From an uncultured bacterium (lineage in GTDB: Bacteria; Fidelibacterota; UBA2242), in contig CAYTUQ010000010.1 of assembly GCA_964441235.1 (NCBI GenBank), positions 11,549-75,548 of the forward strand: a DNA stretch of 64,000 bases, in the 5' to 3' direction. This document shows positions 10,168 through 54,739 of the stretch, piece by piece; the first letter of the stretch is position 1, and each line of letters begins with the position of its first letter. The notes under the pieces are model-generated. The model saw only the letters and a list, made by a program, of their open reading frames with translations, searched no databases and was not told the DNA's origin. The position numbers and the translations under genes are program-made.

Positions 10168-10175
10168 CAAATTCG

Positions 10176-10248
10176 TTTAGCCCTTCGGGCACGTCAGGGA
10201 TGTCTTTTTGAGAGAAACGGGTTTGAATCGTAGCTGCGAACTGTCTAG
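10176..10248 (+). repeat. Hairpin repeat copy 1 (cgtttagcccTTCGgggc...gagagaaacggg)
   Basis: About 90% identical to 10383-10447. Contains a C(UUCG)G-type tetraloop hairpin and flanking inverted cccgttt/aaacggg arms. Confidence 0.6.
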
Positions 10249-10382
10249 TTCGCATTTTATATATAGATGCTATTAATTAATTTTGTCTAACAAAACTGTT
10301 AATTATGCGAAAAAAACCTGTTTTCGCGATAGCCAAACAGGTTTTTTATAACAACAAATGATTAGTTTTATGACCGGGACAA

Positions 10383-10447
10383 AACCCGTTTAGCCCTTCG
10401 GGCGCGTCAGGGACGTCTCTTTGAGAGAAACGGGTTTGAGTCGTAGA
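10383..10447 (+). repeat. Hairpin repeat copy 2
   Basis: Direct repeat of 10176-10248. A terminator-like hairpin (aaacctgttttcgcgatagccaaacaggtttttt) lies between the copies. Confidence 0.6.
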
Positions 10448-11957: not shown

Positions 11958-12779
11958 TTAGGCATTTGTTACACTTTGAATATATCGGGATAAACCTTCC
12001 TTGCTTTTCTGAGAAATGGAATTATCAACTAATTTTTTTCTTTGATCCTTTCTAACATCAAGACAGTTATTTTTCACCTTAATTCCTGTAACTAATGTTG
12101 GACCAACTTTATAAAAGGTCTTTTTATGGCTTATATTATATCCATTATCGCAAATAATTTGAATTATATTTGGTGTTTTGTCTTTAAAATCCGTTTGACT
12201 TGAAAAAGAGAGATCATCAACGAACCGAGTATATACAATTTTTTTTTCTTTACAGAACTCTAACAATACTTTATCAATAGGCAAAAAAACTAAATTAGCT
12301 AGATGTGGGCTTGTCGGAGTCCCTTGTGGTAAACATCCTTTATAAGTTGTCAATAATGTTAATAAATGGCTTACATCTGCAGAAAACGAATTATTAATAA
12401 ACATATTGTAAACATACATATGGTTTACTGAGGGGAAAAAACCCTGTAAATCTGTACAGAAAAAATATTTCTTCCCTTGATGCTTTTTTGCATTTGTAAT
12501 ATTACTCTTTTTTGTAACACCTCCGTGAATATGAGATAGTAATGGTATTTTAGATAAAATTTTATCCTTAATTTTGACTTGAATTTCTTTTAATAAATCT
12601 TTACTTGGATACAATATTCTATTAACAGGTTCACCATTTTTCATTTTAGGCGTCTTATCATCATTAGTTTTTGGTTCTATTTTCTTATAATAATATCTAT
12701 CAATGTTTTCAATAACATGTTTAATAACATCGAGATCAAAATCTAATGTATAAGCAAGATGTTTTGGTTTTTGGATCAT
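11958..12779 (-). CDS. Retron-type reverse transcriptase
   Basis: YYYKKIEPK...NRILYPS (the retron Y..F.IpKk motif), NAKKH (retron-specific NAxxH), FFCTDLQGFFPSV (RT motif 1/2), LPQGTPTSPHLANLVF (motif 4), TRFVDDLSFS (the Y/F-A/V-DD catalytic box) and VTGIKV (the retron VTG motif). Its size, 273 aa, fits the retron range. Confidence 0.85.
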   Translation of the reverse strand: MIQKPKHLAYTLDFDLDVIKHVIENIDRYYYKKIEPKTNDDKTPKMKNGEPVNRILYPSKDLLKEIQVKIKDKILSKIPLLSHIHGGVTKKSNITNAKKHQGKKYFFCTDLQGFFPSVNHMYVYNMFINNSFSADVSHLLTLLTTYKGCLPQGTPTSPHLANLVFLPIDKVLLEFCKEKKIVYTRFVDDLSFSSQTDFKDKTPNIIQIICDNGYNISHKKTFYKVGPTLVTGIKVKNNCLDVRKDQRKKLVDNSISQKSKEGLSRYIQSVTNA

Positions 12780-27824: not shown

Positions 27825-28014
27825 GATAAGCCGACCGCAGGCGGTCGGCTTATCGGCACGGGAGTTGTTGGCTCACTCCATGAAAGTCCGCCTGCGGCGG
27901 CCTATCAATGTCGTTCGAGCCGACCCCGCCTACGGCGGCTACGTCCTGTACTCGCATCTGAGAGAAATCCTTTCTCTCCTTGCTGCGTACAGGATGCGGC
28001 TCAACTCCCGTGCC
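27825..28014 (+). mobile_element. 190-bp GC-rich hairpin-ended miniature element, copy 1 (PATE / IS200-605-derived-like)
   Basis: Perfect 30-nt palindrome gataagccgaccgcaggcggtcggcttatc at one end, with ggcacgggagttg...caactcccgtgcc enclosing the rest. It is essentially identical to the inverted copy at 42620-42809 and much GC-richer than the host. The ORF called inside it is rejected. Confidence 0.65.
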
Positions 28015-28047
28015 GTTAGCACAATAAAATGAAGAGGCAGATATAAA

Positions 28048-30704: not shown

Positions 30705-30906
30705 ATTTCAATTAGCATATCCTAACGAATCTTTTATAGAAAGTAAAGTCAAGAACATAATTCACCGTAACCCCTAGTTTTTAACTTTTAGGGCGCCATA
30801 AAGACGGTTGAAATTTTACTAATGTCGCACTGCCTGTTTTCATAGAGGATATTTCCAGTTTGAAAAACCATACTTATATAACAGGGATTTCTAACCGATC
30901 AGTTTT

Positions 30907-31031
30907 GCCTCAACGGAAGTCTCTGGTGAGACACCTGACGCCATATAAATAAAATAACGATAGCCGAGAAAATCTTTTATTCAGTGTCAGCGTGCACCAA
31001 AGGCGTCTCAATGTGACAAGCAGTGGTTGAA
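30907..31031 (+). repeat. attC-like ~125-bp direct repeat, copy 1
   Basis: Starts gcctcaacgg. It has internal imperfect palindromes (gagacac...gcgtctc; ctgacgcc...ggcgtcag), and similarity to copy 2 ends at ...caagcagNggttg. Confidence 0.45.
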
Positions 31032-31873: not shown

Positions 31874-31901
31874 GCAAGTAATGTGCTAATGAATCTGCTT
31901 C

Positions 31902-32021
31902 GCCTCAACGGAAGTCTCTGGCGAGGCACCTGACGCCATATAAATAAAATAACGATAGCTGAAAATCTTTTATTCGGCGTCAGCGTGCACCAAAGGCGTC
32001 TCAATGTGACAAGCAGGGGTT
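31902..32021 (+). repeat. attC-like direct repeat, copy 2
   Basis: About 94% identical to 30907-31031 over ~120 nt. It brackets the Phd–VapC cassette. Confidence 0.45.
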
Positions 32022-32282
32022 GCCTGCCCGACGCAGGCGGGAACAAAGCCATCTATCTGGAATTTGCACGGCTTTGAGTTATGCTGATAATCAGTGGTGA
32101 ACAGGTAAAATATTCAGTTTATTGCAGCAATGTTAATCATAAACGTTGTTTTTTATCGGATATCTTGATGAAAACCGGTCCGATACCCAAGGAATACCGA
32201 ATTCTGCAAAAACTATTCTCATGCCGCAATTTGCGGCTTATAGCGACATATAGCGCTAATTTTTGTGAGTTACTTTGTAGGC

Positions 32283-36269: not shown

Positions 36270-36928
36270 TTTCTCACATTTAGATTTAGCTTTTTTCGAT
36301 CCGTTACATATACTTTGTTCATAATAACATCTTTAAGTGGACGATCTTTTTTATTACAGTGAACTTTTGCAATTTTATCAACAGTTTTCACTCCCTGAAT
36401 AACCTTACCAAATACTGTGTATCCAGCCTTATCTAAAAACGGTAAGTCTTTCAAGCAGATATAAAATTGGCTGCCGTTTGAGCTCTTTTGCGGATTAATA
36501 TTATCGGGTAGCCTTGCCGATGCAACTGCTCCCCTTAGATGCTTTTGACCAAGTTCTGCGGGAATTGTATAGCCAGGACCACCTGTGCCATCATTATATG
36601 GGTTGTTATCTCTACTTAATATATCTCCGCCTTGAATAACAAAATTGGGAATTATGCGGTGAAAAGTTGTACCATTAAAGTAGCCCGCATTTGCCAGCTT
36701 CTTAAAATTCATTGCGTGAAGTGGCGCAGCGTAAGAGAAAAATTCGATAGTTATATTACCGTATTCTGTTTCAATAACAGCAACTTCCGATGGAGATACA
36801 ACTTCATCGGGCAGTGATTTAACTCTATTCCGAATTTGTTCAATCTGCCTGCCGGATAACGAATCAGCCCGGATCGTCACGCTAATGCAAAGAATTAGAA
36901 AATACATGAAAAGTTGTCGAATAGACAT
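36266..36928 (-). CDS. Cyclophilin-type peptidyl-prolyl cis-trans isomerase (secreted)
   Basis: FHRIIPNFVIQGGD and signal peptide. Confidence 0.85.
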   Translation of the reverse strand: MSIRQLFMYFLILCISVTIRADSLSGRQIEQIRNRVKSLPDEVVSPSEVAVIETEYGNITIEFFSYAAPLHAMNFKKLANAGYFNGTTFHRIIPNFVIQGGDILSRDNNPYNDGTGGPGYTIPAELGQKHLRGAVASARLPDNINPQKSSNGSQFYICLKDLPFLDKAGYTVFGKVIQGVKTVDKIAKVHCNKKDRPLKDVIMNKVYVTDRKKLNLNVRK

Positions 36929-37243
36929 GTGTTCATCTCCTATCTTAAAGTAAAAAGAGGGTAACTATCTAACTCCCAGATCCTGCCGTGTGCCCAAAGT
37001 GTCCCACAGGGGCAATTTTTTCTATTAGAAGTTAGGTTTTTCTCATACAGCAAAAAAAGAGTTTTCATAAAAACATCCTATATTGTTGGTCCGTTCTATA
37101 ACTCAACACCTCATTGTATTTTTCCTCAATAACATTAGGTCTTCGCTCTCCCCTTCTCTTATCAAGAGAAGGGGCAGGGGGTTGAGTTCATCATCTCTTC
37201 CCTTCCACGATCCTCTTCCAAAAAATGGGTCGGAGGATGAGTT

Positions 37244-37748
37244 CTATTTCTCCAATTCTTTCAATAATCTCTCAAGCACATCCTCCAAAGATTTTTTCAC
37301 TTCGGAGTTTTTATATCGTATCACTTTATACTCATTATTTTCCAGAAACTTCTGACGGTATCCATCTTTTTCTTTAGGGGGTGGAATAAAACATATTTTG
37401 TGTTACTATTCATAATTTTATTATAGATAAAAACATTGTAAGATGATTTTTAAGCATGTTAATCTATTCCACCCCCCAAGCGTCCTGTCTTTTATGAATT
37501 CCGCCATCTATTTCAACTATTAATCGCTTTGCATGACAGTAAAAATCGACTATATATCCTCCAATGGGATGCTGTCGTAGAAATTTATATCCTCCCAAAT
37601 TTCTGTTACGGAGACATTGCCACATAATCTCCTCTGCATCGGTAGGATTTTTCCTGTATCTTCTACACAGAGCCTTCAATTCCGGACTGATATATTGAAT
37701 GTTCCCTTCAAAATCGAACTGTTTATATGATAAGGATGGTTCTTTCAT
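37244..37748 (-). pseudogene. DUF559 (Vsr-like endonuclease domain) gene split by a MITE insertion
   Basis: N-part: ...GGYKFLRQHPIGGYIVDFYC...VEIDGGIHKRQDA. It reads into the MITE TIR and stops. C-part 37375→37244: KEKDGYRQKFLENNEYKVIRYKNSEV...LKELEK. The junction restores the frame (…caggacgc|taaagaaaaag…). Confidence 0.7.
37377..37476. mobile_element. 100-bp MITE with 12-bp perfect TIRs GGGGGTGGAATA/TATTCCACCCCC, copy A
   Basis: AT-rich core between GC TIRs. It sits inside the DUF559 reading frame. A second copy lies at 43641-43739. Confidence 0.65.
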
Positions 37749-38055
37749 AGTTTTGGGGTTGATCTTAATAATTAAATTAACTTTCTTGGTGATAATTTAG
37801 AAGATTTCATAGGAAATCCTTTTTAAACCAAATTTCTATAATTTCTGTTAACTTTTTAGTATCATACAATATGAGATAATTCCTCACCGGATTTGTTCCC
37901 CAAAGATATTTTTACAAAAATGGGCATTATTAATTAATAATCTATCATCCGCCAATTTATTACAGCCTGAATAATTCATATACCGCTCCCGGAGGAATTA
38001 CATTTCATACGAATTGTCCGACGGAAAAAGGTACCCTGATGCAGTCATTTTTACC

Positions 38056-39401: not shown

Positions 39402-39631
39402 TGCTATTCCTCTATTTTGTAACTATTAAATCATGATACACGAATTTGCCAGGATTTTTGTAATTAGTAAGAGAAGAAATGTAATTTTGTTGGGAGGTAA
39501 GACTTTGGCAGTTGAGTTTTGGGTGCTTGCGAGATTCTGATATATTCGGAACTTTAATAAGCCCAATTTCCTGTGTTATGAACTCCTCCAACCGATAGCA
39601 AATTGTTATACGATGCCGGTTGCTTCCTCTT

Positions 39632-40045
39632 TTACTCATTGTATGTAGGGTTAATCTTACTAACGACAAATTCTCTTACTTTCCTATCTATTTCAAAGGC
39701 TTCTTTAGCATCTTCTATTCCTGGTTCTATCAAAACATCCGGATAACGGATCTCCACAGCGTAATCAGTGAGGTTATCCGCATATTCCAACTCGTCCTTA
39801 AAAGAAGAATCTATTGTAGCACATAATTCCAACAAATCCATTATACTGTGAGTCTTTGGAAAATAAATCTGATGGTATACTAAGAAGGCTTTTAGATACT
39901 TCTCTGTACCCTGCTGGCAGTGAAAACATACGGTATCTGTAATTGGGTCTTCAAAGGATAATTCCCTTTCTGCAGTTAAAAGGTCCCTTTCTGCCTTATT
40001 TATCCATTTATTGACTAGATCCTTGATGATTTTATCTCGATTCAT
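39632..40045 (-). CDS. HEPN-domain protein (toxin of a HEPN/MNT pair)
   Basis: HEPN-like helical protein downstream of, and overlapping, the MNT gene. An internal Met (MNRDK) with a gggaaag RBS is the likely start. Confidence 0.65.
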   Translation of the reverse strand: MNRDKIIKDLVNKWINKAERDLLTAERELSFEDPITDTVCFHCQQGTEKYLKAFLVYHQIYFPKTHSIMDLLELCATIDSSFKDELEYADNLTDYAVEIRYPDVLIEPGIEDAKEAFEIDRKVREFVVSKINPTYNE

Positions 40046-40349
40046 AAACGACTTTCCCAAATTTATTTGCAGGATACATAATAGTACCAATAATATCTTT
40101 ATATGTCTCAAATTCTTTGGATGGTTTTACAATAACATCAATCGGAACCTTAAAACCAGAGAGAATTTTCCTCACCTTTCGATTCTGTAAATGAGATGGT
40201 AAATCACTATCCTTAATAATCAATAAATCTATATCGCTCTCTTCCGTAGGTATTCCATTAGCGTATGAACCAAAAAGAATCACCTTTTTAGGTTTGAAGT
40301 TCTTTACAATCTTATGAACAATTTTTCTTATCTGATCTTGAGTTAGCAT
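40032..40349 (-). CDS. Minimal nucleotidyltransferase (MNT antitoxin)
   Basis: VILFGSYANG...ESDIDLLI is the pol-beta NTase motif. Confidence 0.75.
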   Translation of the reverse strand: MLTQDQIRKIVHKIVKNFKPKKVILFGSYANGIPTEESDIDLLIIKDSDLPSHLQNRKVRKILSGFKVPIDVIVKPSKEFETYKDIIGTIMYPANKFGKVVYESR

Positions 40350-40490
40350 TGAGGTACCTCTTTATAATCTTATTTATGCGACCAATAGCACAGAAATAAC
40401 AATGATTCTGGAAGTTATTATTGCTCATTTTGGATTTAATTTTTCTCGTTTAATTTTTAATTTCCAATTTCAATGTTCTGTGAACGCTTA

Positions 40491-42221: not shown

Positions 42222-43623
42222 ATGATTATCAGAAATTCTTATTTAAAAAAAATCGAGCCTTTTATTGACAAGCCGCTGACAAAAGTCATTACAGGTATGC
42301 GGCGAACTGGGAAAAGTACATTTTTACAAATGCTCATACAGCAGATTCGTGAAAAAGGTGCTGTTGATAGTCAGATTCTCTGGATCAACAAGGAATTGGT
42401 AGAATTTGACTCTATTCGTAATTACCTTGATCTTTACCAGTATGTCAGGGATTATTTTAAGACAAAATCAAAAAATAACTATCTGTTTATTGACGAGGTA
42501 CAGGATATCGAAGACTGGGAAAAAGCAGTAGCTTCATTTTTAGCCAATCAAATGGCTGATATTTACATCACTGGTTCTAATGCACGTATATATTCTTCGG
42601 AGCTATCAACTCTGCTAGCGGCACGGGAGTTGAGCCGCATCCTGTACGCAGCAAGGAGAGAAAGGATTTCTCTCAGATGCGAGTACAGGACGTAGCCGCC
42701 GTAGGCGGGGTCGGCTCGAACGACATTGATAGGCCGCCGCAGGCGGACTTTCATGGAGTGAGCCAACAACTCCCGTGCCGATAAGCCGACCGCCTGCGGT
42801 CGGCTTATCGGGACGTTATATAGAAATTCCGATGTTTACTTTAAGTTTCAGCGAATTCCTCCAATTCAGAGAAAAGTCTTATACCGCTCTCAATACTGAT
42901 GATGAATTTAGCCTATTTCTGAAGTATGGTGGTTTTCCGGGAATCCACGCACTGGAGTTTGAAGATAAAACGGTTTTTCAATACCTTGACTCCCTCTACA
43001 ATACAATCTTAATTAAGGATGTTATCAGACGGCATAAGATTCGAGATGTTGGAGTCCTGGAGAACGTTGCTCGTTTCATCTTCGATAATTGCGGGAATGT
43101 TACGACGGCTAAGCGGATACCAGACTACCTTAAGAATAAGAAAATGAGAATTTCAACTGATACTGTACTTAATTATTTGTCTTATCTACGAAGTGCGTTT
43201 CTAATCCATAAAACCGGGCATTATGACCTGAAGGGATTAAGACACCTTGAATTTAACGATAAATATTACCTTGGTGATATCGGTCTGCGACATAGCATTT
43301 TAGGTTATAAAAACCGCGATATTTCCGGTCTTCTGGAGAATATTGTCTTCTTAGAACTACTGCGACGTGGCTATCGAATTTTTATCGGAAGACTTAATGG
43401 CAGAGAGATAGATTTCGTTGCTGAAAAGAGTGACGAACGAATTTATATACAGGTATGTTACCTGCTTGCAGACAGCAGTACGATCGAACGCGAATTCGTC
43501 CCACTCGAAAAGATAGAAGATAATTACCCCAAGATGGTGCTGTCCATGGATAAGATTTATATTCCTGATAGAAAGGGAATTATCAGGCAAAATCTGATCA
43601 AGTTTCTATTAAGTGAAAAATGA
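42222..43623 (+). pseudogene. AAA+ ATPase (AAA_14/DUF4143 family) interrupted by the 190-bp hairpin element
   Basis: Walker A GMRRTGKST and IYITGSNARIYSSELSTLLA| then the insertion, then |GRYIEIPMFTLSFSEF..., the canonical continuation. The insert is 190 bp, so the frame shifts by 1. Confidence 0.7.
42620..42809 (-). mobile_element. 190-bp GC-rich hairpin-ended miniature element, copy 2 (inverted)
   Basis: Reverse complement is identical to 27825-28014. Both copies share the flank motif g[ct]tagca next to the cccgtgcc end. Confidence 0.65.
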
Positions 43624-43640
43624 TTCAGAATTTTTATTAA

Positions 43641-43739
43641 GGGGGTGGAACAAATTAACCTATATATATTATTTATGTAACTAACCTACGATCAATAAAA
43701 CAACAGACCAAAATGTAAAACATATTTTATTCCACCCCC
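43641..43739. mobile_element. 100-bp MITE, copy B (TIR GGGGGTGGAACA/TATTCCACCCCC), flanked by TAA/TAA
   Basis: Same TIRs as copy A, an AT-rich core, and TAA on both flanks (a possible target-site duplication). Confidence 0.6.
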
Positions 43740-43956
43740 TAAAGTGAGAGATGCTTTTAGAAAAAAACGTATTGGGTATCTATTTTGCGTTGATTTTCTG
43801 ATTTTTATTAATTACAATGAATATAGAAATGACTCAGATGAATATATAACTGTAGCAATACATTTAGATTTCCGTAAAATTGAATCCAAAAACTACTTTC
43901 TTTTCTTTATACTGTTTTGTATTTTAAAACAGCATATTTTAAAACAGGAGGGGAAA

Positions 43957-53962: not shown

Positions 53963-54739
53963 ATGGGACTTTCAAATTTACAATCAACATATATTGAAGA
54001 TGTAATCAAAAATTGTATTCGAGTAAAATTTAAAAAATACAGACCTGAGACTAGTAATATGCCATTTCATTATAGACTTCTTGGTAAGGATAGAATGGCT
54101 TTATACTCATTTATTCATTCTCTTAATACAAGTTTTGGTACTTCGATTTTTGAACCTGTTGCTATTGCACTTACCAAAGAGAAATTTAAAAATGCTGTAA
54201 AGCAAGCTTCTGTAGGACATCAGATTAGTGAAGAAGCACATATAGTTATTCAAAGAATATTAGATGGTTTGACAACTGGCAGAGAAGAGCCTAATAAGAG
54301 AAAAGAAATAGAAATGATTAGAGCGGTTTGTCGTTCGGGAAATATGAATGACGTTAAACCTGTAAAAGCTGATGTATTTTTGGAAGACTATAATGGGAAT
54401 AAATATTTATTTGATATTAAGACTGCAAAACCAAATATTGGAAATTTCAAAGAATTTAAAAGGTCTCTTCTTGAATAGGTTGCGATTGTATTAGCTCAAA
54501 ACCCGGAAACTAAAGTTATGACAGCAATTGCAATTCCGTATAATCCATATGAGCCAAAACCCTATGAAAGGTGGACAGTAAAAGGAATGCTTGATTTAAA
54601 TGAAGAGTTATTTGTCGCTGATGAATTTTGGGATTTTCTCGGTGGTGTTGGTGTATTTAATGAAATATTAGATTGTTTTGAAAGAGCTGGAATTGAGTTA
54701 CGTACAGAAATTGATCAATATTTTAAAAAATTTAGGTAA
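53963..54739 (+). pseudogene. Putative cognate restriction endonuclease interrupted by a single in-frame TAG (amber at 54476-54478)
   Basis: ORFs 53963..54478 and 54518..54739 are in the same frame, separated only by a TAG. It sits immediately 3' of the MTase. I did not recognise the family. Confidence 0.5.

Follow-up and report, generated by a model that had tools for sequence, protein, structure and literature searches.

Within the window, meaning the entire 64-kb stretch of DNA analyzed here, the 12-mer GGGGGTGGAAYA has exactly four matches, which form two inverted pairs. Dinucleotide shuffles predict 0.31 occurrences, and four or more were reached in 0 of 100 shuffles. The pairs bound two short elements that carry no strand assignment, copy A (37377–37476, 100 bp) and copy B (43641–43739, 99 bp), both with an AT-rich core and neither containing an ORF. 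The left terminal inverted repeat (TIR) of copy A (37377–37388, plus strand) and its right counterpart (37465–37476, minus strand) both read GGGGGTGGAATA and pair perfectly (12/12). In copy B, the left TIR (43641–43652, plus strand) reads GGGGGTGGAACA and the right one (43728–43739, minus strand) GGGGGTGGAATA, with 11 of 12 positions paired. These positions agree with a preliminary description of the DNA, which had reported a 100-bp element and a second copy of it with GC-rich TIRs around an AT-rich core. As also described there, copy B is intergenic and has TAA on both sides (43638–43640 and 43740–43742), the left and right copies of its target-site duplication. It starts 17 nt past the stop codon of a DUF4143 ATPase gene and lies upstream of an antitoxin/ParE gene pair.

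Copy A lies within a gene for a DUF559 protein, a member of a Vsr-like PD-(D/E)xK endonuclease family. The N-terminal fragment (37464–37748, minus strand) is a 94-aa ORF whose last four codons and stop codon derive from the junction and the repeat. The minus-strand frame thus enters the repeat of copy A and then stops (...HKRQDAWGVE*; ...GGIHKRQDAWGVE*), just as the upstream codons had been read before. Directly past the other repeat, the sequence continues with KEKDGYRQKFLENNEYKVIRYKNSEV..., reading KEKDGYRQKFLENNEYKVIRYKNSEVKKSLEDVLERLLKELEK*, and this C-terminal fragment (KEKDGYRQKF...KELEK, followed by a stop; 37244–37375, minus strand) is now in a different frame. The earlier statement that the C-terminal third resumes in frame beyond the TIR therefore needs to be corrected: it does resume at this point, but it is out of frame at present. 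The insertion adds 100 + 3 = 103 nt, so that the C-terminal piece is shifted and the gene is dead; the C-terminal part comes into frame only once the element and one copy of the duplication are removed.

On its own, the N-terminal fragment matches positions 3–68 of the 109 positions of Pfam DUF559 (E = 2.4e-23). Joining the flanks yields a 133-aa protein that matches PF04480 from position 3 to position 109 of 109 in a single stretch (E = 1.5e-35), with 121.8 bits compared to a curated cut-off of 20.6. The proposal that the joined flanks restore the gene thus holds, since the joined protein matches the Pfam model from end to end. It also withstood the comparison with intact homologues: the two halves align contiguously to intact 133-aa proteins, which are 91%, 85%, and 74% identical to the joined protein, and the junction is aligned without a gap. 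The gene for the closest intact homologue (P0001, 91%) occupies the same syntenic position in GCA_030603165.1, with the order MBL-fold gene, DUF559, PPIase, and patatin found alike in the window and in the genome with the intact gene.

A related genome (L083) carries an uninterrupted DUF559 gene at the syntenic site and lacks the element, and thus represents the empty site. The empty site reads ...GAC ATC CGT GAA AAA GAT, and the filled site of the window reads ...GAC GC[TTG]-element-[TAA]A GAA AAA GAT. Six nucleotides in the intact gene have nine flanking nucleotides as their counterpart in the window, exactly as a 3-bp duplication predicts. One copy of the duplication is intact (37374–37376; TTA on the plus strand, TAA on the gene strand), its length of 3 nt being required by the flank lengths relative to the L083 site. 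The second copy (37477–37479; CAA on the plus strand, TTG on the gene strand) is degenerate and differs from the first at two of three positions. An ancestral GC-TTG-A would have contained a TGA stop, which leaves GC-TAA-A (Ala-Lys) as the only in-frame option. Therefore, the element was inserted at TAA, spanning codons 90/91 of the 133-aa gene, and the upstream copy of the duplication has since changed at two positions.

We then aligned the two elements with each other, copy A on the plus strand matching copy B on the minus strand. The alignment contains two types of ends, GGGGGTGGAATAAAAYATRTTTT and GGGGGTGGAAYARATTAAC, and the likeness of the two elements is confined to about 20 nt per end. 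Their cores are 58–62% identical, which equals the level of shuffled cores (~60%; mean of 45.9 matches in 76 positions), and each core is single-copy in all data searched. Judged by their sequences, A and B are relatives that share a putative transposase-recognition end and not a recent common template. Of the previous view that they are two copies of one element, the common ends remain, but copy B is not a copy of A. As each core is unique, this genome provides no evidence that either element was ever copied. Outside the left end of A (37363–37376) and the right end of B (43740–43753), 11 of 14 positions match (CATCTTTTTCTTTA and CATCTCTCACTTTA). A longer element or a second DUF559 remnant was considered and rejected, as the similarity ends after 14 nt and three of the matches are the duplication itself. 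The flanks of other family copies (see below) have no consensus beyond TWA, and the similarity is probably due to chance plus the TWA target.

Several other features of the window were recorded. A second, unrelated small mobile element of 196–197 nt is GC-rich and present in two copies of 99% identity (42614–42809, plus strand; 27825–28021, minus strand). Its ends were read by eye, with neither TIRs nor a clear target duplication seen. One copy splits an ATPase gene of the AAA_14 and DUF4143 type, and removal of exactly 196 nt restores a 401-aa ORF (...IYSSELSTLGRYIEIPMF...). The predicted RNA fold of the element is extreme (−110 kcal/mol; z of −7.8 and −8.9) and ends in a perfect 13-bp hairpin, a comparison with Rfam gave no match, and contigs of the same species break inside the element. 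Direct repeats occur at two places: a 65-nt repeat of 91% identity with copies 213 nt apart (10169–10233 and 10382–10446), and a repeat of ~140 nt with 88–95% identity and copies ~995 nt apart (30891–31029 and 31886–32022) among toxin–antitoxin genes. The former is located ~1.5 kb from a gene for a 273-aa reverse transcriptase (RVT_1; 11958–12779, minus strand), which adjoins a gene for an HTH_3 protein; a retron or a reverse transcriptase with a role in defence are possible readings of this pair. Between pyrE and pyrF, a nucleotidyltransferase/HEPN toxin–antitoxin pair (39460–40490) is absent from the syntenic region of L083 and thus constitutes a presence/absence insertion. A HinfI-like restriction endonuclease adjoining an N6_N4 methyltransferase was called as two ORFs (53963–54478 and the next ORF of 73 aa) and may represent a frameshifted restriction gene.

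The insertion of copy A is common to three genomes, namely that of the window and two species-representative genomes, Neomarinimicrobiota E21 (L024) and isolate KR13_S3.mb.119 (L043). In L024 and L043, the orthologous element is 98–99% identical, and the degenerate copy of the duplication (TTG versus TAA on the gene strand) is present in identical form in all three genomes. Both L024 and L043 have an extra G just past the element, resulting in a frameshift, and in L024 the start codon is lost as well (ATG to ATA). We regard these changes in the sequence as ordinary pseudogene decay. Four further contigs of the species, obtained from different samples, carry copy B without any difference, and an empty allele of its site was not detected among the same-species contigs examined. 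The elements had been thought to be recently active. Our data do not support this for the window: the cores are unrelated, the duplication of A is degenerate, its insertion is shared, and B is identical in the four other contigs. We infer that both copies are old and fixed in the window genome and probably immobile. Activity looks recent only in genomes of Melioribacteraceae and Ignavibacteriales.

The interrupted gene is part of an island of high identity of ~1.05 kb (36770–37825) with sharp edges, which comprises the 5′ end of the PPIase gene, intergenic DNA, and the DUF559 gene with its MITE (miniature inverted-repeat transposable element). Within the island, the window, L024, L043, and L083 are 87–100% identical, compared to 55–75% for the flanking genes. 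Among the three genomes carrying copy A, the element and the DUF559 fragments are 98–100% identical, whereas the body of the adjacent PPIase gene reaches only 67–74%, which indicates that the allele moved laterally. For the window and L043, the corresponding values are 98–99% for the interrupted gene and 68% for the PPIase body. Between L043 and L083, whose allele is intact, the PPIase body is 92% and DUF559 87% identical. The identities of L043 and L083 thus conflict between the two genes, and the history of the interrupted allele differs from that of its surroundings. These comparisons are best explained by one insertion event and subsequent lateral movement of the allele between lineages that had diverged, for which recombination inside the island is the presumed route.

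A GC-rich hairpin motif of 47 nt (CTCTCCCCTTCTCTTATCAAGAGAAGGGGCAGGGGGTTGAGTTCATC; 37144–37190) does not belong to the MITE but to the context of the DUF559 host gene. Direct repeats of this motif flank DUF559 on either side in L083 (2809–2859 and 3495–3542), L108 (1249–1294 and 1807–1853), and L107 (3356–3386 and 3996–4020), and 61 nt of the motif region are missing in L024. DUF559 genes at 73–74% identity are found in unrelated genomic contexts, where direct copies of the motif bracket them. This pattern suggests that the DUF559 host gene itself travels as part of a bracketed mobile cassette. More tentatively, the occurrence of the allele killed by the MITE in genomes with only 67–74% identity in PPIase could hint that a dead endonuclease gene spreads in a homing-like manner or is driven by recombination.

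To place the two elements in a wider family, we scanned one genome per species with the pattern GGGGTGGAAYA-N55-85-TRTTCCACCCC. The preliminary description had suggested a genome-wide search for such pairs of ends, and they are indeed found elsewhere: the scan of these species-representative genomes returned 77 loci, compared to ~4 expected by chance according to our own estimate. The fetched loci contain 68 full copies with five-G ends and AT-rich cores. The Melioribacteraceae MAG CAZXJG01 alone accounts for 28 loci; 7 were found in the Melioribacteraceae MAG JAKIUC01, 6 in the Ignavibacteriales MAG CBFDUR01, 7 across four Cloacimonadota MAGs, 3 in a KSB1 MAG, 2 in Neomarinimicrobiota MAGs, and a few in unclassified MAGs. 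The host lineages are thus Ignavibacteriota, Cloacimonadota, KSB1, and Neomarinimicrobiota. The ends in these loci carry five G, and the family is characterized by the GGGGGTGGAAYA ends together with about seven subterminal bases that are ATARAATAA-like. Element sizes cluster at 89–105 bp, and copies whose cores are unrelated are no exception.

Of the 65 copies with readable flanks, 40 lie between perfect direct repeats of 3 bp, which read either TTA (21 copies) or TAA (19 copies), with no other sequence observed. Most of the remaining copies have one-base variants. About one third of the family is without a perfect duplication; some of these copies are nested or old. Insertions of one copy into another were seen at six loci (L019, L047, L048, L052, L062, and L063). 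Clustering at an identity of at least 80% produced groups of 26 and 6 copies plus many singletons. The TIRs, the sequence-specific duplication of fixed length, the nesting, and the bursts of near-identical copies are the signature of a cut-and-paste DNA transposon family with miniature derivatives (as defined in PMC10969869). In some genomes of Melioribacteraceae and Ignavibacteriales, the family has expanded strongly, with near-identical copies numbering in the dozens. The original interpretation of A and B as non-autonomous MITEs is well in line with the TIRs, the TWA duplications, the many relatives, and the nested insertions.

Copies from Melioribacter sp. (L013) and KSB1 (L026 and L029) form one subfamily with an identity of at least 80% over the whole element, and this reflects either inter-phylum transfer or a binning error. 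Mini-elements of 33–34 nt, made up of two terminal repeats with almost nothing between them, were found in L075 (69–102) and L014 (2–33). Other matches of the scan were set aside. Those in Saprospiraceae, Lewinellaceae, Coriobacteriia, Syntrophomonadaceae, Gemmatimonadota, Halieaceae, and Marinobacter have GGGGTGGAAYA in the interior of a long perfect palindrome; they were not counted as family because the two halves of the pattern are not independent in a palindrome. Near-perfect palindromes of 86–106 nt (GGGGTGGAACACGGATGACACGGAT...) occur in eight loci from Saprospiraceae and Lewinellaceae (L012, L015, L020, L021, L056, L068, L080, and L082), and at least in L056 the inverted symmetry extends into the flanks. 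Further long palindromes with the same 11-mer are present in Coriobacteriia, Syntrophomonadaceae, Gemmatimonadaceae, Halieaceae, and Marinobacter. These palindromic repeats are probably unrelated to the MITE family. The matches in Nocardioides and Gemmatimonas sp. look like chance matches in coding sequence.

As stated before, no partner transposase is encoded in the window: transposase domains are absent from the Pfam hits on record for the called genes of the window and of ~76 kb of the contig. Nor do these ~76 kb contain any GGGGGTGGAAYA-type ends beyond those of A and B. A transposon with matching TIRs, which the preliminary description had named as a check, was looked for in the contig and in genome, metagenome, viral, and plasmid data, and was not found. 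No full-length element with these ends was present in the 77 genome loci, which derive from one scan for paired ends with a pattern of at most 600 nt. Across all loci, the pairs of ends separated by 400–4000 bp proved to be neighboring MITEs or chance matches with two mismatches. The only find of a de novo search for inverted repeats around ORFs, in L016, consists of two MITEs flanking a housekeeping gene for IMP dehydrogenase. When metagenomes were scanned for the A/B-type end GGGGGTGGAAYARATTAAC, 14 loci were returned, of which 5 are further MITEs and the others chance matches in GC-rich coding DNA. Two scans of viral contigs returned nothing, and BLAST of the Melioribacteraceae consensus against the PLSDB plasmids gave AT-rich chance matches only.

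Taken together, A and B are very probably MITEs of a family with GGGGGTGGAAYA ends whose transposase is encoded elsewhere, and copy A broke the DUF559 gene. In this mechanism, a transposase supplied from elsewhere would recognize the GGGGGTGGAAYA ends of the ~100-bp non-coding elements and insert them at TTA/TAA with a 3-bp duplication of the target; the end-defined insertion and the TWA duplication are the steps visible in the sequence. Mobilization in trans would be due to a DDE transposase, either of the IS5 family (ISL2, IS1031, or IS427 groups) or a PIF/Harbinger relative. As no autonomous element with these ends was found, this assignment is drawn only from the duplication. According to the ISfinder tables, the ISL2, IS1031, and IS427 groups make duplications of 2–4 bp. 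The ends of the family presumably resemble those of IS5 and IS903 (GG..TG..GAATAA), which we take as a lead only. The entry of copy A into DUF559 left the 94-aa truncated ORF and the out-of-frame C-terminal piece, and the interrupted allele probably spread afterwards through lateral transfer, with recombination inside the conserved island.

Among the alternatives, the one that fares best, although still improbable, is that a full-length IS of this family landed at each site and later lost its interior in place, with two ends and some subterminal DNA remaining, so that A and B would never have been mobile miniature elements. The unrelated, single-copy cores of A and B and the existence of the mini-elements with two ends only are compatible with such remnants. 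The size clustering at 89–105 bp across unrelated cores, however, is unexpected from independent deletions and argues for mobile miniature units. Other subfamilies have clearly multiplied as units of ~90–100 bp, and no partly deleted intermediate between a full-length IS and a MITE was present in any fetched locus.

Far less credible is the notion that the elements are REP/BIME-like palindromes or structured RNA genes, which are spread by a tyrosine enzyme of the RAYT/IS200 type or retained because they serve the host, for instance in termination or mRNA stability. The GC-rich ends can indeed pair as a 12-bp stem, and transcripts of MITEs often form stem-loops (PMC10969869). Yet only this end stem folds (z of −1.3 to −3.5), the centroid structure being the stem alone. 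The cores are not conserved, Rfam searches at the gathering threshold and with E up to 1 returned nothing credible, and neither copy is surrounded by more promoter-like or terminator-like sites than expected from shuffles. The family has 3-bp TTA/TAA duplications and nested insertions, which REP-type elements do not make; a REP is an imperfect palindrome of 20–40 nt without target duplication, in contrast to the present 100-bp elements with their unstructured core. A Y1-transposase domain (RAYT) is absent from the Pfam hits on record for the called genes of the contig. The least probable reading takes the 100 nt in DUF559 as an intervening sequence that is removed or bypassed so that the full protein is still made; taking out the element and one copy of the duplication does bring the flanks together in a perfect reading frame, but the sequence is too small and unstructured for a group I/II intron and has no Rfam match, the family member B lies in intergenic DNA, and the further frameshift and the lost start codon in the orthologous alleles imply that the reading frame is not under selection.

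Measured against the definition of prokaryotic MITEs in PMC10969869, the mobile miniature elements described here are shorter than ~500 bp and lack coding capacity, their TIRs fall into the range of ~4–30 bp, and they have flanking duplications, dispersed copies, and an empty site; a related autonomous element with the same ends, which also belongs to the definition, was not found in the scanned data. Of the dispersed copies, only two, with unrelated cores, are from the window genome. Direct repeats of prokaryotic MITEs are known to decay with age (PMC10969869). The TWA target-site duplication of 3 bp is the feature expected of IS5/PIF-Harbinger elements. For Harbinger, the 3-bp duplication is canonical, and in phylogenies these transposons fall together with the IS5 family (PMC12730594). 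PIF/Harbinger transposases mobilize mPing and other Tourist-like MITEs (PMC2836001). The present family shares with Tourist-like MITEs and their IS5-family relatives the short non-coding format, TIRs starting with GG, and the 3-bp TTA/TAA duplication (PMC2836001; PMC12730594), as well as the AT-rich target and the amplification to many copies. Unlike in Tourist-like MITEs, no partner transposase was found, and the hosts are Ignavibacteriota, Cloacimonadota, KSB1, and Neomarinimicrobiota.

The bacterial elements Correia (Neisseria), RUP (pneumococcus), Chunjie (Geobacter), and Nezha (cyanobacteria) are similar in size range, TIRs, and direct repeats that fade with age, and they are mostly intergenic but occasionally located inside genes or each other (PMC10969869). 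They differ from the present family in the sequence of the ends, and the cores of the latter are unusually variable, while its ends of 12–19 nt are fixed. Correia and RUP duplicate a TA dinucleotide in the manner of IS630/Tc1, in contrast to the TWA of the present family. Rickettsia palindromic elements are likewise small, palindrome-ended elements found inside a protein-coding gene. They insert in frame and are translated within the host protein, whereas copy A inactivates its host gene through the stop codon that it introduces and a +1 shift. In the literature searched, we found neither the present family nor any report of MITEs for Ignavibacteriota, Cloacimonadota, KSB1, or Neomarinimicrobiota (Marinimicrobia), and a 2024 review of prokaryotic MITEs makes no mention of TTA/TAA-duplicating ones.

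We conclude that the elements are a new family of a well-known kind and that the insertion into DUF559 is a routine consequence of it. Only two points are mildly surprising, namely that a dead allele has spread laterally and that the ends stay constant from one phylum-level lineage to another. With regard to the latter, the constant ends of 12–19 nt, the replaced cores, and the distribution over at least four phylum-level FCB lineages could, as a tentative and rather doubtful extension, point to one uncharacterized transposase lineage that recognizes its ends with unusual strictness and passes from phylum to phylum. An equally tentative, separate reading takes the DUF559 island as a site-specific selfish cassette.

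These results reflect ordinary selfish-DNA biology and leave the current view of MITE function as it was. MITEs are, however, the least catalogued mobile elements in bacteria, and the GGGGGTGGAAYA ends together with the TWA duplication provide a simple annotation signature for split genes in these MAGs, where the fragments of genes split by MITEs are currently called as separate short ORFs. The same signature also helps to explain contig breaks. Finally, an interrupted endonuclease allele that is near-identical in otherwise distant genomes has some value for the study of gene flow in uncultured marine lineages.
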